Shown in pieces: positions 2,909 through 60,386 of a stretch of 64,000 nt of DNA. The position numbers and the translations under genes were made by a program. The DNA is from an uncultured Candidatus Saccharibacteria bacterium. Its GTDB lineage: Bacteria > Patescibacteriota > Minisyncoccia > UBA6257. Location of the stretch: NCBI GenBank assembly GCA_964479005.1, contig CAYZJA010000001.1:1-64000 (forward strand). Reading direction: 5' to 3'. Below the pieces are notes generated by a model. That model searched no databases and had not been told where the DNA came from. It was given only the letters and a program-made list of their open reading frames with translations. How positions within the stretch are numbered: position 1 is the stretch's first letter; each line of letters starts with the position of its first letter.

Positions 2909-4567
2909 ATGTTTTTTCAGCGACGAAAATTCGTTTTCACTATTATTTTAGGAATAATATTTTTTGTCCCTGTTTTTGCTCAGGCAATTTCTGTGGGTCA
3001 AGAGCGTTCTTTTAATATTCAGTCAGATTATGATTTGTTAAGTCGTGGCAAAATAGATACTCAGTTAATAAAAATTACCAATCAATTATATTTTTATGCA
3101 GATAAACAATGGTTTAATAAACTCTCATCTGGAAATAGAACAAATATTGACAGTAAGATTTATAATTTAAGCAGTGAGTTTGAATATAGAATTTATCCAA
3201 TTTTAACTCAGACATTTAGCTTTGAAGATAATCCAGGTATAGACAATGATTCAAGAATCCTTGTGGTGTTGCATAAAATGAAAGCAGAAATTGGCGGCTA
3301 CGTTCAAACAGAAGATAATTATTCATCTCAAATTTATTCTCGTTCTAATGAAGGACAGATAATATATTTAAATGCCGATAATATTTTATCTTTACCTTCC
3401 AATAATTTAAATTATCATTTGGCTCACGAATTTATGCATTTGATTACTCTTAATCAGAATCCCAATGAAGAAACTTGGTTAAATGAAGCGCGCGCAGAAT
3501 ATACAGAAACTTTATTGAATTATGGAAAAGATTGGGCAAATAGTAATTTACAGAGAAGAGTACAGCAGTTTTTGATTAGTACGAATATTTCTTTATTAAA
3601 TTGGGATAATGCTAATTATGATTATGCTAAAGTTAATTTATTAACTCAGTATTTGGTTGAGCATTATGGTATTAGTATTTTAGTTGATTCTTTACATTCT
3701 TCTCAATCAGGAATTCCTGCCCTTGATTATGCTTTAAACAAAAATGGATTTTCTGAAGATTTTTCAGATGTTTTTATGAATTGGTTGATTACTAATGTAG
3801 TTAACGATTGTTCTCTGGGAGAAAAATACTGTTATAAAAATCCTTCTTTGCAAAATTTTACGATTTTTCCTTATAGCTATTATTTGCCTACAAGGGGGAG
3901 AGCTTCTTTATCAGTTACAGATTCTTTAAGAACTTGGAACGCAAAGTGGCAAAAGATTATTGGCGGAAGAGATATTTTAAAAATGAAATGGAAAATACCA
4001 GAGGATACTCCTATTTCTCAAGTTCCTTATGTTATAGTAAAAAATAATGAAGAAAAACAAGTTGGCTTTCTTGATTTTAAAGGAAGCAATATTGATGAAA
4101 TTTTTGTTTCAGATTTTGGAGATGAAAATATTACTTTGATTACTATTCCTTTTCTTGGGTCAACCCCTTTAGATAAACTTTATTATTTTTCCTGGGAAGC
4201 ATCAATATTAGAAAATTCAGAACAAGCTGAAGAGGAAGCAATAAAAGCCCTGCAGGCAAAAATATTTTTACTTCAACAAGAAATAGTTAAACTTCAGGCG
4301 CAACTGCTCGCTTTATCAGCAAGCCAGAATTCTTTTACCTGCTCTCCTTTTTATAGCGACCTTTATTTTGGAATGAATAGCAATCAAGTAAGTTGCTTGC
4401 AACAATATTTAAAATCTTTAGGCTCTGAGATTTATCCAGAAGGATTAGTAACAGGTTATTTTGGGTCTTTGACTCAAGCGGCAGTTAAGCGCTATCAGGC
4501 GTCGCAAAGCATTATTACTACTGGATATTTTGGACCATTAACCCGGACAGCAGTAAATAATCAATAA
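2909..4567 (+). CDS. Secreted zinc metallopeptidase-like protein (HExxH) with C-terminal peptidoglycan-binding domain
   Basis: Signal peptide, HEFMH motif followed by NEARAEY (possible gluzincin third ligand), and a coiled-coil segment. The C-terminal YFGSLTQAAVKRYQ...GYFGPLTRTAV is homologous to the PG-binding segment of the upstream surface protein. Confidence 0.65.
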   Translation: MFFQRRKFVFTIILGIIFFVPVFAQAISVGQERSFNIQSDYDLLSRGKIDTQLIKITNQLYFYADKQWFNKLSSGNRTNIDSKIYNLSSEFEYRIYPILTQTFSFEDNPGIDNDSRILVVLHKMKAEIGGYVQTEDNYSSQIYSRSNEGQIIYLNADNILSLPSNNLNYHLAHEFMHLITLNQNPNEETWLNEARAEYTETLLNYGKDWANSNLQRRVQQFLISTNISLLNWDNANYDYAKVNLLTQYLVEHYGISILVDSLHSSQSGIPALDYALNKNGFSEDFSDVFMNWLITNVVNDCSLGEKYCYKNPSLQNFTIFPYSYYLPTRGRASLSVTDSLRTWNAKWQKIIGGRDILKMKWKIPEDTPISQVPYVIVKNNEEKQVGFLDFKGSNIDEIFVSDFGDENITLITIPFLGSTPLDKLYYFSWEASILENSEQAEEEAIKALQAKIFLLQQEIVKLQAQLLALSASQNSFTCSPFYSDLYFGMNSNQVSCLQQYLKSLGSEIYPEGLVTGYFGSLTQAAVKRYQASQSIITTGYFGPLTRTAVNNQ

Positions 4568-6828
4568 TGAATAGATTAAAAACAATACTATTTTATCTTA
4601 CTATTGCAACTTTATTTACGCCTTTTTTGGTTAATACTCATACGTATTTTCCTTTTATTATTGCTAAAGCCACAGCTTTTCGAATAATAGTAGGTTTAAT
4701 GTTGGTGGTCTGGGTGTTTTGGCTAGTTAGAAGTCGAATAAAACTTACTCCTTTAGCTAAAGCAGTGATTATTTTTGGAGTTATAATCTTTATTTCTGCT
4801 CTTTTTGGCATAGATTTTTATTATAGTTTCTTTTCAGGAAACGAAAGAATGGAAGGAGTATTTGGAATTTGGCATTTTATGCTTTTTTTCTTGATTATTG
4901 CCACAGCATTTAATTATTTGGAAATAGAAAAAATTCTTAAAATTCAGGCGGGGATAGGTATTCTCTACTCAATAATGGCTGTTTTAGCTTATTTTGGTGT
5001 AGGAATAACTACTGCCCAATTAACTGGTAATCGCTTGGCTGGCTATACCGGTAATCCTTCTTTTTTCGCCGTTTATTTGCTTTTTAACGCTTTCTTAGCT
5101 TTATATTTTTATTTCAGGCAATATATTTTTGATAAAAAATTATTTAATTGGTGGCTGCCTGTTTTTTTTGGGCAAAGTTTTTTACTTTTTGCTACTTTGA
5201 CAAGAGGTTCAATGATGGGCTATTTAATTAGTATTGTATTAATCGCTTTTGGTATAGTTTTCTTGAAATCGGATTTTCAAAGAAAATCCGATTTCTCTGA
5301 TTCCTTGAAAAAAATCGCCATTGTTTTTTTAATTAGTATTTTGGTTTTATCTGTTTTTACTTTTAGTGCAAAAAATACTGATTTTGTAAAGAATAATAAA
5401 ATTCTAAGCAGGTTTTCTTCTATTTCTCTGGCAGATCCAACAGCTCTCTCTCGTCTTTTTTCTGCTGGGACAGCCTGGAAAAGTTTTTTACAAAAACCAT
5501 TCTTAGGTTGGGGTCCAGAAAATTATGAAGCAGCTTATATAACAAATTTTAATCCAGAAGTCTTAAAATATTTACCAGAAGATTTTTATTTTGACAGAGC
5601 GCATAATAAACCAATGGAGGTCCTGGCTACTAATGGTATTTTTGGCTTTTTGTCTTATCTTTCTATTTTTGGATTGGCTTTATATTCTTTAAATCGGCTT
5701 AGGAAAAAGAAAGAATGGTTTTTGCCGTCATTAGCTTTAGCAGGTTGTTTAATTGGATATTTTATTCAAAATGTTTTTATTTTTGATTTTCACGAAAGTT
5801 ATTTGATGTTCTTTTTGTTATTAGCTTTTATATCCTCGCTTTATCATCATCCTGAGGAGCGAAGCGACCAAGAACCTCTCGCGAATGACGATTCAAAAAA
5901 TTATGCTTCAAAAATGGGAAAGGGATTATTAGTTATTACTGTTGTTTGTTTGGTTATTTTTAGTAGTATTCAGTGGGTTATAAAACCTTATTTAGTAAGT
6001 AAAGGAATTTTTAATGTTGGCTCTTTGATCAAGCAAGAAGAAAGTGAAAAAGCATATAAAGAATTAAAGAAAATAATTAATAATCCCACTTTTTTGAAAG
6101 ATGATATTATTATAGGAATGAAAAAAATGTATTCCCTTTATAGTTTTAAAATTAGTGAAGAATACAAGGAAAAAATGATAAATGAGTTAGTTTTTAAGGC
6201 AAAAGAAGCATCTGAAAAAAGGCCGTGGCGATTTAGTTTAGTTATGGCAAAGGCAGACTTGGATACCATTTACTCTCAATGGGATAAAGATTGGCTTATT
6301 GAAGCTGAAAAATCAACCGAAGAAATACTTTCTCGTTTTCCGCATTTTCCACAGTCACATTTATTTGCCTCAAAATTTTACTTACTTAACGGAGAAATAG
6401 AAAAATCTATAACAGAAGCTGAAAAAGTTATTAATGTTAATCCACAAATTTCTACTTCTTATTATATTTTAGCATTTGCCTATGATGGATTAGGAAATGC
6501 GGAGAAAAGAGACGAGAACCTAATAAAGGCGGCTGAACTTAATTTTCCTTTTAAAGATAAAACTCAGATTTTAAATATAATAAATCTTTGCATAAAAGAT
6601 AAAAAGTATGAAGTTATAGAAAAACTTTATTTACAAGCAATGCAAATAGATCCACAAGAAATTTCTTTATATACTGGTTTGGCTGCTACTTATGGTAAGA
6701 TGCATGATAAGGAACGAGCTATTTATTATGCGCAAAAAGCGGCTGAGTTAAATCCTGATTTCAAACAAGCTAGCGAAGATTTTATAAAGTTAATAGAAAA
6801 TGAGCAGTGGGATCAAATACAAGACTAA
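4567..6828 (+). CDS. O-antigen ligase (Wzy_C/WaaL)-family polytopic membrane protein with C-terminal TPR repeats
   Basis: About 12 predicted TM helices in the N-terminal 430 aa. C-terminal TPR-like repeats (AFAYDGLGNAEKRDENLIKAAELNFPF..., YYAQKAAELNPDF). ATGA start/stop overlap with the upstream gene. Confidence 0.65.
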   Translation: MNRLKTILFYLTIATLFTPFLVNTHTYFPFIIAKATAFRIIVGLMLVVWVFWLVRSRIKLTPLAKAVIIFGVIIFISALFGIDFYYSFFSGNERMEGVFGIWHFMLFFLIIATAFNYLEIEKILKIQAGIGILYSIMAVLAYFGVGITTAQLTGNRLAGYTGNPSFFAVYLLFNAFLALYFYFRQYIFDKKLFNWWLPVFFGQSFLLFATLTRGSMMGYLISIVLIAFGIVFLKSDFQRKSDFSDSLKKIAIVFLISILVLSVFTFSAKNTDFVKNNKILSRFSSISLADPTALSRLFSAGTAWKSFLQKPFLGWGPENYEAAYITNFNPEVLKYLPEDFYFDRAHNKPMEVLATNGIFGFLSYLSIFGLALYSLNRLRKKKEWFLPSLALAGCLIGYFIQNVFIFDFHESYLMFFLLLAFISSLYHHPEERSDQEPLANDDSKNYASKMGKGLLVITVVCLVIFSSIQWVIKPYLVSKGIFNVGSLIKQEESEKAYKELKKIINNPTFLKDDIIIGMKKMYSLYSFKISEEYKEKMINELVFKAKEASEKRPWRFSLVMAKADLDTIYSQWDKDWLIEAEKSTEEILSRFPHFPQSHLFASKFYLLNGEIEKSITEAEKVINVNPQISTSYYILAFAYDGLGNAEKRDENLIKAAELNFPFKDKTQILNIINLCIKDKKYEVIEKLYLQAMQIDPQEISLYTGLAATYGKMHDKERAIYYAQKAAELNPDFKQASEDFIKLIENEQWDQIQD

Positions 6829-6831
6829 GAT

Positions 6832-8934
6832 ATGAAACAATTAGTTTTTAAACAAGGAAAAGTTGTTGTAGAAGAGGTTCCAACACCAGCTTGCGGAGCA
6901 GGCCAGATTTTAGTGGAAAATTTGTTTTCTTTAATTTCCTCTGGTACAGAATTATCAAGTTCAAATTATCCTACCAAATTAGCTAAAGGCATCAAATTGA
7001 TAAAAGAGCAGGGATTTTCCAATGCTTATAAAATAATTACAGGTATGCTTCAAGCAGGAGCAACGCCTGGATATAGTTGTTGTGGTCGCGTGATTAAAGT
7101 TGGGAAGGATGTAAATGATATTAAGAAAGGGGACATTGTTGCTTGTGCAGGAGCAAATATTGCCTCACATGCTGAGTTTATAGCTGTTCCAAGGAATTTA
7201 GCAGTAGAAGTCCCTAATGGGGTTTCTTTTGAAGATGCTTGTTCTGCCACAGTAGGTGCAATTGCTTTACAAGGTGTTAGGCAGGCAGATTTGCGCGTAG
7301 GAGAAAGTGTTGTAGTGGTTGGTTTGGGATTAATAGGTCAGTTAACTGCTCAGATTCTTTTGGCAAGTGGGATAAAAGTGATTGGTATTGAACTTTCCAA
7401 AGATAGAATAAAAAAAGCAAAAGAGAATGGTCTATTTAATGTTTTTTCTCCTACAGAGAAGAATCTTTTGAATAAAATTAATCATCTTACTAATTCACAA
7501 GGTGCAGACGCGACTATTATTACAGCTGCTAATCCATTAGATGATGAAATTATTAATCAAGCATTATTAATGACAAGAAAAAGGGGAAAGCTTGTTGTTG
7601 TAGGTGATATTGGTTTGAAAATTAATAGATTACCTTGGTATCAAAAGGAAATTGAATTGCGTATATCCACTTCTTATGGCCCTGGCAGAGGTGATTCTGA
7701 TTATGAAAACAAAGGAATTGATTATCCTTATGCTTATGTGAGGTGGACGGAAAATCGCAATATGCAGGCTTATCTGCAATTATTAAAAAACAAAAAAGTT
7801 GATTTTGGTTCTTTGATTGGAGGAAAATATTCTTTAGAACAGGCAGATTTAGCATATAAATTACTAAATTCTAAAAAGAAACCATTGGCAGTTCTGCTTT
7901 CTTATCCAGGCTCTATTTTAAAAGAAAAAGATTCGCAACAGTTTGTTGAATTATCTGTCCCGCAAAAAATTGAAGGGAAAATTGAATTAGGAATTATTGG
8001 AGTGGGAAGTTTTGCCCAGACCGTACATTTGCCTAATTTAATGAAATTAAGAGAATTTTACAGAATTCGTGGAATTTGTACCCATAATCAGGTAAAAGCC
8101 AAATATTTTGCCAGCCGTTATAATGCGAGTATTGCAACAACTGATTATAAAATTTTACTTAATGATCCAAAAATAAACCTTGTTATTATTAGCACAAGGC
8201 ATAATCTTCACGCTCAAATGGTGGTTGATGCTTTAAAAGCAGGGAAGAATATTTTTGTAGAAAAACCATTATGTCTAACCGAAGAAGAATTAAAAGAAAT
8301 TTTGGATATATTAAAAACACAAAATTTTGATTATTCTCCAATTGTTGCGGTTGGATTTAATCGGCGTTTTTCTCCGTTTATTCAGAAAATAAAAGAGGAA
8401 ATTGAGGATCGCCGCAGTCCAATAATAATTAATTATAGGGTTAATGATTCTTATCTTGCGCCAAGTCATTGGGTAAATACCAGCGAAGGCGGAGGAAGAG
8501 TTTTAGGCAATGCCTGCCATATGTTTGATGTTTTTTGCTATTTAGCTGAATCTGGAATTGAAAAAATTGATGCTCGCGCAATAACCTCAAAAGACACATT
8601 TTATCTTACTACTGACAATTTTGTTTCCACTATTAAATTTAAAGACGGCTCTTTAGCTAATTTAGTTTATACAACACAGGGAGATAGCGGAGCTGGTAAA
8701 GAATATATGGAGGTATATTCTGAGGGCAGAGTATTTATTCTAGATGATTATAAAAAGTTAAAAACATATGGGGTGAAAGCTGATATGAAAATGTACAAAC
8801 AAAATAAAGGGCTTTTTGAAGAGTTAAAAAGTTTAGCTTCTTGCTTGCAGCAGAGAAGAAGCCCAATGCCATTGGAGGAAATTATTAATGCAACTAAAAT
8901 TAGCTTAGAAGTGGATAAGCAAGTGAGAGGTTGA
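6832..8934 (+). CDS. Bi-domain oxidoreductase: N-terminal zinc-type alcohol dehydrogenase (MDR) fused to C-terminal Gfo/Idh/MocA NAD(P)-binding oxidoreductase
   Basis: N-terminal GroES-like plus Rossmann (VVVGLGLIGQL). Second Rossmann at IELGIIGVGSFAQ followed by an ISTRHNLHA...EKPLCLT Gfo/Idh/MocA-type core. Confidence 0.75.
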   Translation: MKQLVFKQGKVVVEEVPTPACGAGQILVENLFSLISSGTELSSSNYPTKLAKGIKLIKEQGFSNAYKIITGMLQAGATPGYSCCGRVIKVGKDVNDIKKGDIVACAGANIASHAEFIAVPRNLAVEVPNGVSFEDACSATVGAIALQGVRQADLRVGESVVVVGLGLIGQLTAQILLASGIKVIGIELSKDRIKKAKENGLFNVFSPTEKNLLNKINHLTNSQGADATIITAANPLDDEIINQALLMTRKRGKLVVVGDIGLKINRLPWYQKEIELRISTSYGPGRGDSDYENKGIDYPYAYVRWTENRNMQAYLQLLKNKKVDFGSLIGGKYSLEQADLAYKLLNSKKKPLAVLLSYPGSILKEKDSQQFVELSVPQKIEGKIELGIIGVGSFAQTVHLPNLMKLREFYRIRGICTHNQVKAKYFASRYNASIATTDYKILLNDPKINLVIISTRHNLHAQMVVDALKAGKNIFVEKPLCLTEEELKEILDILKTQNFDYSPIVAVGFNRRFSPFIQKIKEEIEDRRSPIIINYRVNDSYLAPSHWVNTSEGGGRVLGNACHMFDVFCYLAESGIEKIDARAITSKDTFYLTTDNFVSTIKFKDGSLANLVYTTQGDSGAGKEYMEVYSEGRVFILDDYKKLKTYGVKADMKMYKQNKGLFEELKSLASCLQQRRSPMPLEEIINATKISLEVDKQVRG

Positions 8935-8959
8935 CAAATCTAAAATATAGTAGTATAAT
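8931..8959 (+). promoter_or_regulatory. Consensus sigma70-type promoter (TTGACA-N17-TATAAT) driving the sRNA candidate
   Basis: TTGACA at 8931-8936, exact 17-nt spacer, TATAAT at 8954-8959. It overlaps the stop codon of the oxidoreductase gene. Confidence 0.6.
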
Positions 8960-8965
8960 AGCATG

Positions 8966-9127
8966 AAAGGCCTATTGATCTGTGGGCAAGCAAGCAAACG
9001 CTTGTCAGGGGTTCTCTGCAGATGGGTATCTTGGACATATTTATATGTCTGAGGTATACCTCGGGTTAATCTTTTAGTCTTCGTTTCGAAGGATATTTGC
9101 CTGCAGATTAATGGGCCTTTTTTTATT
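8966..9127 (+). ncRNA. Candidate structured small RNA (~160 nt), class unassigned (6S-like, SRP-like or novel)
   Basis: Predicted TSS 7 nt after the -10 element. A 15-bp closing helix pairs AGGCCUAUUGAUCUG (8968-8982) with CAGAUUAAUGGGCCU (9104-9118), followed by a U-run. Internal hairpins: GGCAAGC/GCUUGUC, GACAUAU/AUAUGUC, CUUCG/CGAAG. It lies between convergent genes with no CDS downstream, so it is not a leader. Confidence 0.45.
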
Positions 9128-9136
9128 GTGCGGGAA

Positions 9137-12031
9137 TTATACTCCAAGTACCCTTTTTATTTCTTCCCATGAGGTAATTCCCTGTAAAACTTTAATAACA
9201 GCGCTGTTAATTAATTTTGAAAATTTTACTTTTGTAAGATCTTTTGTTTCTGAAGGCGGTATAAGTATTTCAAATATTCCTGATTGGCCTTTATATCCGG
9301 TAAATCCACATTGGGTACAACCTTGAGCTTGGTAAATCTTTGAAGGCTTCTTATATTCTGGGAAATATTTCAAAGATGGCTTAATAAATTTAGACATTTC
9401 CGATGGAATTTTTATTTCTTTTTTACAATGAGGGCAAAGGCAACGGATTAATCGTTGCGCAATAACAGTGTTAATGGCAGGCATCAATTCTTTTGAAGGA
9501 ATTTCTAAACTCTGTAAACGTGATAAAACGCCTAAAGCGTCATTTGTATGAATAGTGGACAGAACCAAATGTCCTGTTGTAGACGCCTGCCAGACTAATT
9601 TAGCTGTTTCTTTGTCCCTAATTTCTCCAATTAGGAAAATGTTAGGGTTTTGGCGAAGCAAACTGCGAAGGACTTTGGAGAAGGTATATCCTTTTTCCTC
9701 ATTAACTTGAGTTTGCATAATTCCAGACAAGCGATATTCAATAGGATCTTCAACAGTAATCACTTTTACATCTGGCTTGGCAAGTTTTTTAAGTATTGTA
9801 AATAAAGTTGTGGTTTTTCCCGAAGAAGTAGGTCCGGCAGCTAAAATTAATCCGACTTTTTTTTCTAATACTTTTTCTATTTCTTCTTCCTGTTTCTTTA
9901 AAAATCCCAAGTTTTCTAAATTTAATAAAGATTCTTCCCCGCCCAAGATTCTTAAGGAGGCGCTTTCTCCATATCCGCCTGGAATTATTGAGAGCCTGAG
10001 GTCAAAAGATTTATCAGGAAGAATAAGCCGGAATCTTCCTTCTTGAATTATCTGTGTTTCCTCTGTTTTTAAACCGCTGAGGGCTTTTAATTCATTGATT
10101 AATTTAGGGTGTTCGTTGATATCAAAAGAAACTAATTTATGGAGCACTCCGTCAATTCTTTCCCTAATTTCACTGTTTTTTTCTTCTGGTTCAAAGTGGA
10201 CATCTGTAGCTCGTGATTTTAATGCAGTAGCTAAAATAATGGCAATTTGTCTTTCAGAAGATTTATCTTTTAGTAATGGAGAAATTGATTTATTTTTTTG
10301 AAGCAATTTTTCTATTTTCTTCTCTTCTTTGCTGCTTACTTTTACGCCTCGAGTCAAAACTTGAGAAAACAATTCTTTATATAATTCCTGGATATAGGAA
10401 ATATCACCTGCCACTCTTATAACTTCTTCCAAAGAAGTAATCCCTTCAATAGTTTTTAATAAACCGTCATGAAAAAGAGGCACCATTCCTTCGTCAATGG
10501 CTTTTGATCTTATTTCATTTTGGTCAGCGTCGGATCTGATTGTTTTAATAATTCTTGGACTTATATTAAAGTATTCAAAAATTCCAATCTGGCTTTTATA
10601 TCCCAACCAATGACATTTTGCGCAACCTTTTGATTTATAAAGATAGGGAATATCTTTTGGTATTTTTACTTTGCTTTTTGGAGAAAGAATACTAAAAGCC
10701 TCAATTAATCTTTCTTCCATTTCAGAAGTTGGTTTGTATTTTTCTTTGCAATCAGGACAGAGGCGTCGAATTAATCTTTGCGCCACGACTAATTTAAGCG
10801 CATTTGGAAGCATTTGGGCGTCAGCGCCTAATTCAACCAGTCTGGCAATAGTGCCGCTGGCTTCATTGGTATGGAGTGTAGAAAAAACTAAATGCCCGGT
10901 TAAAGCAGCTTGTATAGCGGTTTTTACTGTTTCTTCATCTCTCATTTCGCCAATCATAAGGACATCAGGATCTTGCCGGAGAATTGATTTTAATCCATTA
11001 GCAAAACCATATTTTTTTGATGTCTGAGTTTGGTTTACACCAACAAGCCGATATTCAATTGGATCTTCAATCGTGATAATTTTTACTCCCGGGGAAATCT
11101 TCTTTTTTAAAAAAGCGTATAAAGTAGTTGTTTTTCCCGAGCCTGTAGGTCCTGTGATTAAAATCATTCCATTTGGCGCTGATAAAGAATGGTTAAAAAC
11201 ATCTATACTTTTTTGTCCAATACCCAAATCTTTTAAACCAAAAGCGGCTCGTTTGGGGTTTAAGAGCCTAAATACTAAAAATTCTCCATGAGGACCTGGC
11301 AAGCTGGAAGCGCGAACATCAATAAAATTTTTATTATTTTGGATAGTAAATCTGCCATTTTGGGAAACATTTTCAATATTTAATTTTAAGCCAGACAAAA
11401 GCTTTAATCTTTGGTTAATGCCGCGGTGTTTCTTTTTTTCTATTTCAGAAACATCATATAAGACACCGTCCACACGAAAACGAACAAGAGCGCAGTCTTC
11501 CTGCGGTTCAATATGAATGTCAGAGGCGTCTATTTCAACAGCTGATTTTAAAATAAGAGAGACCAATAATGTGACTTCTTCTGTGGGAAGGGGTAAAAGT
11601 TCTTGATGAAGATCGGAAAATGCTATGGATTTAGCGCTAGTTACATCTATAAAATTTGACAATTCTTTTTGATGCTCATGGACAAAAGCATAATTTTTCC
11701 ATGCCCAATTAAGGCTTTCCTCAGTAACAACAAAAACGGCAACCTTATATCTTTCTTTTTTAATTTCTTCAATTGTTTTTATTGTTTCAGTATTAAAAGG
11801 GTCTAAAACAGCTAATTTAATTTGATTTCCTATTTTTTGGAAAGCAATAATATTAGTTTTTCTTGCTTTTTCTTCTGGAATTATAGAAAGAGCGCTTGTT
11901 TCAATTGGCGCTTTTCTTAAGTCAACATAAAGAAAATTGTGTTTTTCAGCCAGCCTCTGCGCTTCTCTTTCTTTTGATTCTTGCCAAAGAGCTTTAATTT
12001 TTTCCTCTCTTTTTTTGGCGAAGTCATTCAT
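9137..12031 (-). CDS. pilB: Type IV pilus/T2SS assembly ATPase (GspE/PilB family), complete intragenic tandem duplication with two full ATPase modules
   Basis: GspE_N-like N-terminus. Module 1: Walker A GPTGSGKTT, Walker B DPDVLMIGEMRD, His box TGHLVFSTLHTN, tetracysteine CPDC...CAKC. Module 2: GPTSSGKTT, NPNIFLIGEIRD, TGHLVLSTIHTN, CPHC...CTQC. Confidence 0.85.
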   Translation of the reverse strand: MNDFAKKREEKIKALWQESKEREAQRLAEKHNFLYVDLRKAPIETSALSIIPEEKARKTNIIAFQKIGNQIKLAVLDPFNTETIKTIEEIKKERYKVAVFVVTEESLNWAWKNYAFVHEHQKELSNFIDVTSAKSIAFSDLHQELLPLPTEEVTLLVSLILKSAVEIDASDIHIEPQEDCALVRFRVDGVLYDVSEIEKKKHRGINQRLKLLSGLKLNIENVSQNGRFTIQNNKNFIDVRASSLPGPHGEFLVFRLLNPKRAAFGLKDLGIGQKSIDVFNHSLSAPNGMILITGPTGSGKTTTLYAFLKKKISPGVKIITIEDPIEYRLVGVNQTQTSKKYGFANGLKSILRQDPDVLMIGEMRDEETVKTAIQAALTGHLVFSTLHTNEASGTIARLVELGADAQMLPNALKLVVAQRLIRRLCPDCKEKYKPTSEMEERLIEAFSILSPKSKVKIPKDIPYLYKSKGCAKCHWLGYKSQIGIFEYFNISPRIIKTIRSDADQNEIRSKAIDEGMVPLFHDGLLKTIEGITSLEEVIRVAGDISYIQELYKELFSQVLTRGVKVSSKEEKKIEKLLQKNKSISPLLKDKSSERQIAIILATALKSRATDVHFEPEEKNSEIRERIDGVLHKLVSFDINEHPKLINELKALSGLKTEETQIIQEGRFRLILPDKSFDLRLSIIPGGYGESASLRILGGEESLLNLENLGFLKKQEEEIEKVLEKKVGLILAAGPTSSGKTTTLFTILKKLAKPDVKVITVEDPIEYRLSGIMQTQVNEEKGYTFSKVLRSLLRQNPNIFLIGEIRDKETAKLVWQASTTGHLVLSTIHTNDALGVLSRLQSLEIPSKELMPAINTVIAQRLIRCLCPHCKKEIKIPSEMSKFIKPSLKYFPEYKKPSKIYQAQGCTQCGFTGYKGQSGIFEILIPPSETKDLTKVKFSKLINSAVIKVLQGITSWEEIKRVLGV

Positions 12032-12100: not shown

Positions 12101-12556
12101 ATGAAGATAAAAGTTATTAGCGAAAGCCCAAAAGAAACGCAAAAAATTGCCTCTTTTTTTATGCAGGCTGTTTTAATGAGATATATCCCAAAACGAAAGG
12201 GTTTAGTTATCTCTTTAGAAGGTCCTTTAGGCGGAGGTAAAACCGAGTTTCTTAAAGGAATAGCAAAGTTTTTAAAGCTTAAGGAAAAACTTTTTAGCCC
12301 TACTTTTTTGATTATGAAAAGTTTTCCTTGCAAAACTCGTTTTTTTAAAACATTATGGCATTTAGATTGTTATCGAATTGAAAAACCCAAAGAAATTAAA
12401 GAATTGGATTTTTCAGGAATTATTAAAAATCCGCAGAATTTAATTTTTATTGAATGGGGGGATAAGATTAAAAGAATTCTTCCCAAAGGTCATTTGAAAA
12501 TAAAATTTAAAATAACAGGAGAAAATACAAGAATATTGGAATTTCATCTACCATGA
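12101..12556 (+). CDS. tsaE: tRNA threonylcarbamoyladenosine biosynthesis protein TsaE (YjeE-like P-loop ATPase)
   Basis: EGPLGGGKTEFLKGIAK Walker A typical of TsaE. Start placed at the internal ATG at 12101 because the longer ORF (11981) would overlap pilB on the opposite strand. Confidence 0.7.
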   Translation: MKIKVISESPKETQKIASFFMQAVLMRYIPKRKGLVISLEGPLGGGKTEFLKGIAKFLKLKEKLFSPTFLIMKSFPCKTRFFKTLWHLDCYRIEKPKEIKELDFSGIIKNPQNLIFIEWGDKIKRILPKGHLKIKFKITGENTRILEFHLP

Positions 12557-26609: not shown

Positions 26610-26645
26610 GTTTTATAAAAAGATTAATTGTTTAAGATATTTTAG

Positions 26646-27023
26646 TGGAGAAGGTGGGAGTTGAACCCACGTCTAAAAAGAATTTTTTAAATAATTCTAC
26701 GAGTGTAGTTCATTCTTTGTATCTCTTAAGAAAAGAAAGAATGAACAGACTTTTCTTAAAATTCTCCGAAAATAGTTCAATTGATTTTTGGTCGGAAAAG
26801 CCAGAAACCAATCTATCTCGAGGTTTATATCCTTTGGGGCTATCGAGAATCATCCCAAAGAATTTCCCTTAAAAAGGAATGGCTTAGCCTAAACGATTAA
26901 GCATAGGCATAAGCAGGAGTTTGATTGGCATTTATTGATGCCGCCTTGATTTTTATTGAGGGTACAAGACATCCTCAACTCGCTTATTTAAAAACTCTCT
27001 TTTTATCGAATCCCGTCATCCCC
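26646..27023 (-). ncRNA. ssrA: tmRNA (SsrA), standard one-piece form; predicted tag ANQTPAYAYA
   Basis: 5' end GGGGAUGACGGGAUUCGA... 3' end ...GACGUGGGUUCAACUCCCACCUUCUCCA (T-arm plus acceptor, CCA not encoded) closely matches the E. coli tmRNA 3' end. Internal reading frame GCC AAU CAA ACU CCU GCU UAU GCC UAU GCU UAA. Adjacent to smpB. Confidence 0.8.
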
Positions 27024-59730: not shown

Positions 59731-59807
59731 CGGGGTGTGGCCTAGTGGTTTAGGGCGCTCGCATGGGGTGCGAGAGATCTTCGCAGGTTCGAGTCCCGCC
59801 AGCCCGA
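59731..59807 (+). tRNA. tRNA-Pro (anticodon GGG) candidate
   Basis: Perfect anticodon stem CUCGC/GCGAG with loop AUGGGGU (U33, GGG, G37). T-loop GGTTCGAGTCC. C1-G72 and A73 are Pro identity elements. D-arm GCCU/GGGC. Irregularities: an 8-nt variable region, one mismatch each in the T-stem and acceptor stem, and CCA not encoded. Confidence 0.55.
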
Positions 59808-60386
59808 CAAAACAACAAATACTTCTTTACTTCTTTTCCGCGTTGCTTTGGGTCTGAACATTTTAAAGAATTTAAAAAGCGAAGATACTTTTTTAGCTAA
59901 AAAATGAACATCATTACTTTCAAAGGCTTTACAAACAAAAGAGCCTTCTTTTTTTAATAAAGGGGGAATAAAAGAAAAAGCTTTTTTGATTAATTCAAGA
60001 GAGCGTTCGCTATCAACATCTTTAATTCCAGAAGTTGCTGGAGCAAGATCAGATATAATCACATTGAATTTATCTGGAAGATTATTTTTTTTAAGCAAAT
60101 TTTGAATTTTCTCAACTTTTAGCTTAAAAATATCTTTTTGAAGGAAAATAGCTTTGGTAGAAACAGTAATTGGCTTTAAATCTACTCCCACAACTTTTCC
60201 ATTGGGTTGAATAACTTTTTGGGCGTAAAGTAACCAAGAACCTGGGAAACAACCAAGGTCCAAAACTAAGTCACCAGGTTTAAAAATATGGAATCTTTCG
60301 TCAATTTCTTTTAGTTTATAAACTGAACGGGCAGGATAGCCCTCTTTTTTTGCTTTTTTGAAATAATGGTCTTGGGATTTATACAT
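59742..60386 (-). CDS. rlmE: 23S rRNA (uridine-2'-O)-methyltransferase RlmE/FtsJ
   Basis: SAM motif VLDLGCFPGSWLLYA; K-D-K-E catalytic residues pattern. The annotated 3' end reads through the tRNA-Pro on the opposite strand. Confidence 0.8.
   Translation of the reverse strand: MYKSQDHYFKKAKKEGYPARSVYKLKEIDERFHIFKPGDLVLDLGCFPGSWLLYAQKVIQPNGKVVGVDLKPITVSTKAIFLQKDIFKLKVEKIQNLLKKNNLPDKFNVIISDLAPATSGIKDVDSERSLELIKKAFSFIPPLLKKEGSFVCKAFESNDVHFLAKKVSSLFKFFKMFRPKATRKRSKEVFVVLSGWRDSNLRRSLAPHASALNH

Follow-up and report, generated by a model that had tools for sequence, protein, structure and literature searches.

The first 64,000 nucleotides of contig CAYZJA010000001.1 from an uncultured Candidatus Saccharibacteria bacterium (this whole stretch is called the window below) raise the question of what is encoded between two convergent genes, one for a 700-aa ADH_zinc_N/GFO_IDH_MocA oxidoreductase (open reading frame (ORF) 6832–8934) and the other for a PilB-type ATPase. 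An earlier note, made from the sequence alone, had placed here a gene for a stand-alone structured small RNA (sRNA), complete with promoter and terminator. Our analysis upholds this proposal through a promoter that matches the consensus at 12 of 12 positions, a fold tailed by seven U residues, and helices that covary among relatives, and we regard it as practically certain that the element is a real, conserved, and strand-specific structured RNA gene. It represents a new RNA family, which is absent from Rfam 15 and from the literature searched. Its kind, the bacterial stand-alone structured sRNA, is already known; what is unusual is the interlocking of its closing helix with the stop codon and terminator of pilB.

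The promoter, TTGACA-N17-TATAAT at 8931–8959, overlaps the oxidoreductase stop codon as the earlier note had read it, with the TGA (8932–8934) falling inside the −35 hexamer. No other sequence in the window, whichever strand is read, comes as close as one mismatch to the consensus. TTGACA is kept in most of the relatives described below, both close and distant, and the relatives' promoters that were scanned matched at 12/12 positions (locus L006) and at 11/12 positions with an extended −10 TG (locus L048). From this promoter, transcription is predicted to start at approximately 8965–8967, and the predicted 3′ end lies at approximately 9122–9127. The RNA gene hence spans approximately 8965–9124 of the + strand, giving a transcript of approximately 155 nt, of which the G+C content is approximately 43% as against approximately 32% for the genome. 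It is single-copy within the window, and each relative also holds one copy per locus, which excludes a repeated or mobile element. The parts of the gene are as follows.

8931–8936, + strand: −35 hexamer TTGACA, containing the oxidoreductase stop codon.
8954–8959, + strand: −10 hexamer TATAAT, separated from the −35 hexamer by a 17-nt spacer.
8965–8989, + strand: 5′ arm of the closing helix P1, including the 5′ A-tract AAA (8966–8968), which would supply the U-tract of the proposed reverse terminator when read from the opposite strand.
8990–9005, + strand: P1a hairpin GCAAGC-AAAC-GCUUGU, 6 pairs, of which 3 are compensatory, with 100% of alignment cells paired.
9008–9015, + strand: 5′ strand of P2, GGGGUU with a CU linker (family consensus GGRRUUYU).
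9016–9064, + strand: P3 module, the most conserved part of the family, consisting of CU, a GCA bulge (9018–9020), GA, a single bulged U (9023), the hairpin GGGUAUCUUGG...CUGAGGUAUACC with a variable tip, the invariant CCUC (9059–9062), and then GG.
9068–9073, + strand: 3′ strand of P2, AAUCUU (family consensus AAUYCU).
9078–9092, + strand: P4 hairpin UCUUCG-UUU-CGAAGG, kept as a hairpin while its sequence varies, with 3 of 4 pairs compensatory in the main clade.
9097–9121, + strand: 3′ arm of P1, pairing with 8965–8989.
9118–9124, + strand: U7 tract of the intrinsic terminator, directly after P1.

The 162 nt downstream of the promoter were folded, a check that the earlier note had suggested, and gave a minimum free energy (MFE) of −70.2 kcal/mol (z = −7.77), with 0 of 200 shuffled sequences being as stable; the reverse complement of the same 162 nt reached only −47.2 kcal/mol. 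The pairing between the two ends, which the note had put at 15 bp, is real but was drawn too short, as the helix comprises 24–25 bp (8965/8966–8989 with 9097–9120/9121). It is followed by the anticipated U-run, T7 at 9118–9124. Two of the three internal hairpins recognized at that stage were also placed correctly, GACAUAU/AUAUGUC being the tip of P3 and CUUCG/CGAAG being P4. The third, GGCAAGC/GCUUGUC, had been set in a wrong register, because covariation puts GGGCAA (8984–8989) in P1, and the P1a hairpin is built from the second repeat, GCAAGC (8990–8995) with GCUUGU (9000–9005).

Relatives of this RNA were collected by three routes. Close relatives were reached via the flanking oxidoreductase, which led to syntenic loci of metagenome-assembled genomes (MAGs) at a protein identity of 68–96%. 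These MAGs are labelled Candidatus Paceibacterota or ‘uncultured Saccharibacteria’, and eight syntenic genomes carry the element at a nucleotide identity of 69–91%. A synteny-independent scan of metagenome contigs with two invariant core blocks, GCAGATGGGTA-N8-38-TATACCTCGGG, gave 24 further loci. They include a divergent pair, L022 and L032, in which P1a is absent and P1 is wholly replaced in sequence yet still paired (ACAGAUCUAGGGCUGGGGG / CCCCCAGCCCCAGGUCUGU); the core of this pair, UCUGCAGAUGGGUA...UAUACCUCGGG in L022, is identical despite this replacement. Distant loci were fetched through relatives of the L022-type PilB (71–81% identity), one of which is named Candidatus Nealsonbacteria by its source. 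There were 10 of them, every one with the RNA convergent to pilB, and compensatory changes extend even to the ‘invariant’ core of these copies. The family thus comprises more than 30 distinct sequences, ranging from close relatives out to Patescibacteria whose PilB is 47% identical.

The membership of the distant copies was examined with two covariance models. The model R1, built from the main clade to which the window RNA belongs, detects the distant copies, and the model R2, built from the distant copies only, detects the window copy (8970–9118, + strand, E = 0.003 in a 285-kb search) as well as other main-clade copies. Neither model gave a match in unrelated control loci. Two viral-contig matches of a relaxed core pattern were dismissed as chance, since neither model fits them. 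The RNA is hence widespread in Paceibacteria-type Patescibacteria, which belong to the candidate phyla radiation (CPR), and the idea of a lineage-specific CPR RNA is supported.

Covariation was evaluated on a main-clade alignment (A4; 24 sequences, 22 distinct) and on an alignment of the distant copies (A6; 10 sequences), to which RNAalifold was also applied. In A4, 98.5% of the cells in paired columns are paired, as compared with 37–52% when the 3′ partners were slid, and double-sided changes occur in 20 of 57 pairs; 0 of 500 shuffles reached any of the five measures. The corresponding values for A6 are 93.1% against 35–62%, with double-sided changes in 28 of 51 pairs, including 19 of 22 in P1. 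Among 500 shuffles, none reached the observed value for four of the measures, and 8 did so for the fifth. P1 of the main clade consists of 24 pairs, of which 10 are compensatory. The helices are hence kept with compensatory changes in both related and distant genomes, which is the opposite of the missing conservation that the earlier note had named as speaking against its candidate. The alignments also reveal which strand is under selection. In paired columns, the main clade has 277 G·U combinations against 7 A·C combinations, and the corresponding ratio for the distant group is 56:13. The sense strand folds better than the antisense by a mean of 17 kcal/mol. This indicates that selection acts on the RNA that is transcribed towards pilB.

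The anatomy of the family was derived from a merged alignment of 31 distinct sequences. All share an architecture in which the long stem P1 closes the molecule, P2 and P3 form a rod that carries a bulge and the invariant CCUC, and P4 is a hairpin. P1 consists of 13–25 bp of freely varying sequence with the 5′ A-tract in front, and there is almost no variation in this AAA(A) leader or in the U-tract. The stem encloses a structured domain of 85–110 nt across the family, a 107-nt insert in the window. The junction after the 5′ arm of P1 spans 0–4 nt and is filled by P1a in the clade of the window only, P1a being without counterpart in L022 and the distant group. P2 is formed by GGRRUUYU and AAUYCU, and is separated from P3 by a 5′-strand bulge of 0–5 nt, which is GCA in the window. 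At the base of P3, G-A-(N)-G-G pairs with the invariant C-C-U-C, leaving one bulged nucleotide on each side. The P3 hairpin carries a conserved YUGG, and its tip loops vary (UUUA, GAGA, UUCG, GUUU, UUU), alternating between GNRA (GAGA), UUCG, and other loops in the distant members. A short A-rich linker joins the P3 and P4 regions, and the P4 loop, which reads GUUCCUAA in most of the distant members, shows no conservation in the main clade.

Some members deviate from this plan without loss of the core. L060 has an extra hairpin between the promoter and P1 (approximately 1557–1620, − strand), and L054 has an additional simple terminator hairpin, CCUCCUCUCAAAGAGGAGGUUUUUUU, after P1 (approximately 4340–4410, − strand); the core is intact in both. 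Furthermore, an octamer, CUGCAGAU, occurs twice in main-clade RNAs, at 9016–9023 and 9100–9107 in the window, each copy being complementary to 8978–8985. A switch through pairing of the internal copy with the 5′ arm of P1 was considered and rejected, as L022 keeps only 4 bp of it and the pairing is not conserved.

To which known class could such an RNA belong? The earlier note had thought of an abundant housekeeping RNA such as 6S or the RNA of the signal recognition particle (SRP), and had proposed a search against Rfam. At the gathering thresholds of Rfam 15, the 64-kb window contains only a transfer-messenger RNA (tmRNA) and one tRNA. With permissive settings (E ≤ 10), four variants of the RNA, searched as 190–400-nt stretches, gave no match to 6S, SRP, or RNase P RNA, and only chance-level matches to an L20 leader, miRNAs, snoRNAs, and Y_RNA. 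The sole Y_RNA match, found in L022, scored 14.6 bits (E = 2.2), the gathering score being 38. The RNA hence matches no family, including 6S, SRP, and Y RNA. With respect to 6S RNA (RF00013), no model match was obtained, and the 5′ junction is 0–4 nt in distant members and is taken up by P1a in the main clade, so that a central bubble is missing. For SRP RNA (RF00169 / RF01854), there was likewise no match, and inspection of the alignment by eye showed no GNAR loop and no AGCA or GGAA motif. For Y RNA or YrlA, only the chance-level match was found, and no TROVE gene occurs in the neighborhoods listed with Pfam domains. The 6S or SRP-type identity is accordingly not supported by the four variants searched; abundance and a housekeeping role would be plausible in view of the near-consensus promoter.

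We also considered a CPR counterpart of 6S or of another universal housekeeping RNA that has diverged past detection by Rfam; a length of 130–160 nt, paired ends, a rod shape, a near-consensus promoter, a single copy, and the clade breadth of the family are all typical of such RNAs. In addition, the Rfam search at the gathering thresholds covered the 64-kb window, which does not address a canonical 6S RNA elsewhere in the genome. We nevertheless judge this explanation distinctly unlikely: the four variants did not match 6S, SRP, RNase P, or, above chance, Y RNA; the 0–4 unpaired nucleotides at the 5′ junction of the distant members leave no bubble and no template strand for a product RNA; and the P3 tip varies (GAGA, UUCG, UUU), where an SRP-type RNA would show a GNAR loop and AGCA. 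In the literature searched, nothing ties CPR or Patescibacteria to 6S RNA, to a pilB-associated sRNA, or to a named RNA motif, and pilB and CPR are unmentioned in two genome surveys of the Breaker laboratory.

The RNA gene might also encode a small protein. There are two short ORFs, one of 28 codons from ATG 8963 and one of 15 codons from ATG 9023 (MGILDIFICLRYTSG). A Shine-Dalgarno (SD)-like GGAG/GGGG lies approximately 10 nt upstream of the conserved AUG in P2/P3 (9008–9025), so that this part looks like a site of translation initiation. Of the 31 distinct members, 28 have the AUG at the base of P3, the exceptions being L048, L052, and L049. A small-protein or dual-function gene starting at ATG 8963 or 9023 would explain this prevalence, the SD-like GGAG in front of it, and a common frame, M-x-x-L-A-R-A-R-L-x-L-G-K..., in six distant members. 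Against it, the frame relative to CCUC differs (mod 3 = 0, 1, and 2) even among the close L025, L019, and L027; the peptide ranges from 6 to 39 aa; and the variable sites are distributed over the codon positions as 7, 8, and 12, with no significant third-position bias. An ATG at the position of 8963 occurs only in the window and L007 among 11 representative members, the substitutions compensate base pairs, and the ATG, like the SD-like motif, is buried in a helix. The short ORFs were hence rejected on account of their unconserved ATG, frame, and length and the absence of codon-position bias, and the coding explanation appears exceedingly improbable.

The two genes that follow the RNA in the window are given below.

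9137–12031, − strand: convergent pilB/gspE-family gene for a 964-aa ATPase, a tandem of two ATPase modules and the invariant neighbor of the RNA.
12101–12556, + strand: tsaE, the divergent neighbor of pilB.

The absence of a same-strand coding sequence downstream, on which the earlier note had relied, was confirmed, as the convergent PilB/GspE-type gene ends at 9137. The same is true throughout the family: the RNA always faces a convergent pilB, with no downstream gene on the same strand in any locus, which disposes of a riboswitch or leader of a following gene as the note had concluded. In the pattern-scan loci for which downstream sequence is available, convergent pilB was found in 19 of 19, and all loci derived from PilB showed the same arrangement. 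The PilB protein of the window has an MshEN-type N-domain (two matched stretches, NCBIfam), and that of the distant group is a single module of 430–445 aa. The neighbor on the other side varies, being the oxidoreductase, a Wzy_C/TPR protein, or others; the distant group has ruvB or an LTD/HHH_3 comEA-like gene there, co-directional with pilB.

The coupling to pilB, which the earlier note overlooked, extends to single nucleotides. In approximately two-thirds of the 31 loci measured, the TAA stop codon of pilB overlaps the U-tract or lies at most 5 nt away from it, and this TAA is often the reverse complement of the last T residues of the U-tract and the next A. In four lineages (L013, and L021, L024, and L040 with the same 3′ flank), the pilB ORF even enters the 3′ arm of P1 by approximately 22 nt. 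The gap between U-tract and stop codon is 12 nt in the window, and larger gaps occur in L028 (137 nt), L054 (106 nt, with its extra hairpin), L045 (38 nt), and L039 (25 nt). In the two loci scanned, the pilB strand showed no compact terminator. A consensus terminator scan, in which the loop is limited to 3–8 nt, misses P1 and reports a short 5-bp sub-hairpin by the U-tract, and it reported no terminator in L048. The position of P1 between the conserved A-tract and U-tract, together with the lack of a compact pilB-strand terminator, argues that P1 works in both directions. We hence consider that the closing stem probably doubles as a bidirectional terminator shared by the RNA and pilB, which is somewhat more likely than not. 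If P1 terminates pilB, the 3′ untranslated region (3′ UTR) of pilB would be complementary to the whole RNA.

The gene after pilB in the distant group (ruvB or the LTD/HHH_3 comEA-like gene) has its start codon within the promoter spacer of the RNA (TTGACAAAnnTTnCATAA). This overlap of promoter and start codon on opposite strands was located at 4437–4465 in L048, approximately 4486–4500 in L049, approximately 4500–4525 in L045, and 379–407 in L022. No promoter of its own strand was found for the gene after pilB in L048, and a hidden opposite-strand promoter of that gene was set aside as a cause of the sequence conservation, none having been found in this locus.

The same features allow the thought that the element is nothing but an elaborate bidirectional terminator or insulator whose RNA product has no function. 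This would agree with the conserved A-tract, stem, and U-tract and with a pilB stop codon that overlaps the U-tract, and a test for known bidirectional terminators found the A-tract/stem/U-tract arrangement between convergent units, although not a compact short-loop hairpin. However, a terminator needs neither a conserved promoter of its own (12/12 in the window) nor a 100-nt covarying domain with invariant nucleotides. Moreover, L054 keeps the whole RNA beside an extra simple terminator hairpin, and the G·U bias is strand-specific. An element that only terminates is hence very unlikely.

Another possibility is that the RNA primarily acts as a cis-encoded antisense regulator of the GadY type, which would control the processing or stability of pilB mRNA and hence the extension of type IV pili. 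Its pairing target would be the pilB 3′ UTR, or the spacer between pilB and the next gene in the distant group, and the fold would serve only stability and pairing kinetics. When examined for this type, the promoter and geometry fit, the overlap of the transcripts itself being implied from the gene layout. A tail-to-tail pilB is found in every flanked locus, down to a PilB identity of 47%, while the other flank varies, and the stop codon at the U-tract in most lineages leaves pilB no space for a terminator of its own. The RNA gene of the distant group occupies the entire spacer from pilB to the co-directional ruvB or comEA-like gene, as in the gadX-GadY-gadW layout. Complementarity is, however, automatic for any cis-encoded RNA and cannot account for a near-identical P2-P3 beside a replaced P1. 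The loops that would have to kiss a target are the least conserved parts, with a GNRA or UUCG cap at the P3 tip, and the G·U:A·C bias reflects selection on the fold of one strand and not on a duplex. Further, the near-consensus promoter suggests constitutive expression, which would be odd for a dedicated regulator, and the divergent adjacency of tsaE and pilB is similarly conserved without a functional link. Regulation by antisense pairing as the primary role is therefore possible but on the unlikely side. Pairing in trans between the RNA and the translation-initiation region of pilB was also considered and rejected, being no better than shuffles over 17 lineages (mean z = +0.23); L022 is the only exception (z = −4.3), and it is not conserved.

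We tentatively favor, with a confidence that stays just short of even, a stable ribonucleoprotein (RNP)-type RNA that acts via its P2-P3 module and whose core function would be protein binding rather than pure antisense pairing. The nucleotides of P2-P3 stay constant while P1 turns over, and the terminal loops either lack conservation or consist of GNRA/UUCG caps, which favors a protein-bound architectural RNA and is a poor fit to antisense recognition by kissing loops. In such a scheme, the near-consensus sigma-70-type promoter would drive strong transcription, and P1 with the U-tract would terminate the RNA and clamp both of its ends to give a stable molecule. Since P1 would be the only terminator available for pilB, every pilB mRNA would carry a 3′ UTR that is fully complementary to the RNA. 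The P2-P3 internal-loop module would be the most likely site of protein recognition, by which the RNA may bind or sequester a partner in trans. Antisense cross-talk with the 3′ end of pilB would be a likely secondary effect, through a duplex that is probably sensitive to RNase III, as for GadY and gadX. More speculatively, the RNA could belong to a CPR-specific class of RNP RNAs that is interlocked with pilB, whose abundance would set the expression of pilB and thereby pilus-dependent attachment to the host or DNA uptake; taken as a whole, this proposal is doubtful.

Several points weigh against the combination of a shared terminator and a protein-binding RNA. The gaps of 25–137 nt in L028, L054, L045, and L039 mean that overlap with the stop codon is not obligatory, and intrinsic terminators do not usually consist of a 24-bp stem around a structured insert of 107 nt. 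In the pilB direction termination is weaker, as A·C mismatches replace the G·U pairs there and the U-tract on that side is poor in the window (UUUCAU). The divergent adjacency of tsaE and pilB, two genes without an evident link in function, is kept in nearly every locus in which that side can be seen, and since this synteny is equally conserved without a rationale, synteny alone is weak evidence for a link between the RNA and pilB. Finally, no known protein-binding motif was recognized in the RNA; a kink-turn (K-turn) at the P2-P3 bulge was sought by eye and rejected, as after the GCA bulge G-A faces U-C, which makes Watson-Crick G-C and A-U pairs.

Could the terminator instead be switched? 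A ligand-sensing riboswitch that controls read-through, and hence antisense transcription into pilB, would make sense of the clustering of conserved nucleotides in the internal-loop and junction region, of a terminator that directly faces pilB, and of the second CUGCAGAU of the main clade, a potential alternative partner for the 5′ arm. A P1 of 22–25 bp is, however, far too stable to depend on a ligand, the alternative pairing amounts to only 4 bp in L022 and is unconserved, and no competing anti-terminator is supported by covariation. We hence regard ligand control as highly improbable, and the protein-binding RNA described above is retained as the preferred reading.

Other features of the window and of the related loci are as follows. 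The only other structured RNAs in the window are a canonical tmRNA gene at 26643–27023 (− strand; Rfam 134 bits, ARAGORN tag peptide ANQTPAYAYA) and a tRNA-Pro gene with the anticodon GGG at 59731–59808 (+ strand), the sole tRNA in the 64 kb. In L048 (5713–6810) and L049 (5251–6321), a LAGLIDADG homing-endonuclease-like gene lies beside the LTD gene, and a large serine recombinase gene (5615–7228) occurs near the locus in L045.

Much of bacterial diversity is accounted for by the CPR/Patescibacteria, which have tiny genomes and are almost uncharacterized at the RNA level; a lineage-specific structured sRNA of CPR was not found described in Rfam 15 or in the literature searched. The present family is easily recognized, broadly conserved, and strongly covarying, which makes it a candidate for an Rfam entry and for experiment. 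Cultivated CPR bacteria have been reported to need type IV pili, of which PilB is the motor, for episymbiosis. If an RNP RNA that sets pilB is true, it would be the first RNA-based control point of the episymbiotic lifestyle of CPR. For terminator biology, the closing helix of an RNA that apparently doubles as the terminator of the opposing gene would force a complete overlap of sense and antisense transcripts.

In comparison with known systems, the RNA resembles Y RNA and YrlA in that its ends form a long stem around a structured module and are followed by a U-rich 3′ tail, but it lacks a model match above threshold and, in the neighborhoods listed with Pfam domains, a Ro60/TROVE (rsr) neighbor. 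It shares with 6S RNA the size, the paired termini, the elongated helical shape, the strong promoter, and the single copy, whereas its helices meet, in place of the central bubble, in a three- or four-way junction whose 5′ strand has hardly any unpaired nucleotides. GadY is a cis-encoded antisense sRNA of E. coli that lies opposite the gadX-gadW spacer. The RNA here is like GadY in having its own promoter and in being placed on the strand opposite to the 3′ end of a protein gene, the overlap of the 3′ ends being implied, and its distant-group copies likewise take up the spacer of two co-directional genes. The two RNAs are unrelated in sequence, and the present RNA differs in its covarying fold and in internal nucleotides that are invariant over deep divergence, which are not expected of a purely antisense RNA. 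Lastly, it shares with bidirectional terminators a G+C-rich stem with a 5′ A-tract and a 3′ U-tract, the position between convergent units, and a stop codon within the tract. In contrast to the 3–8-nt loop of such terminators, its stem holds an 85–110-nt domain; one of the two ‘genes’ that it serves is the terminator structure itself, and the G·U bias renders the element asymmetric.

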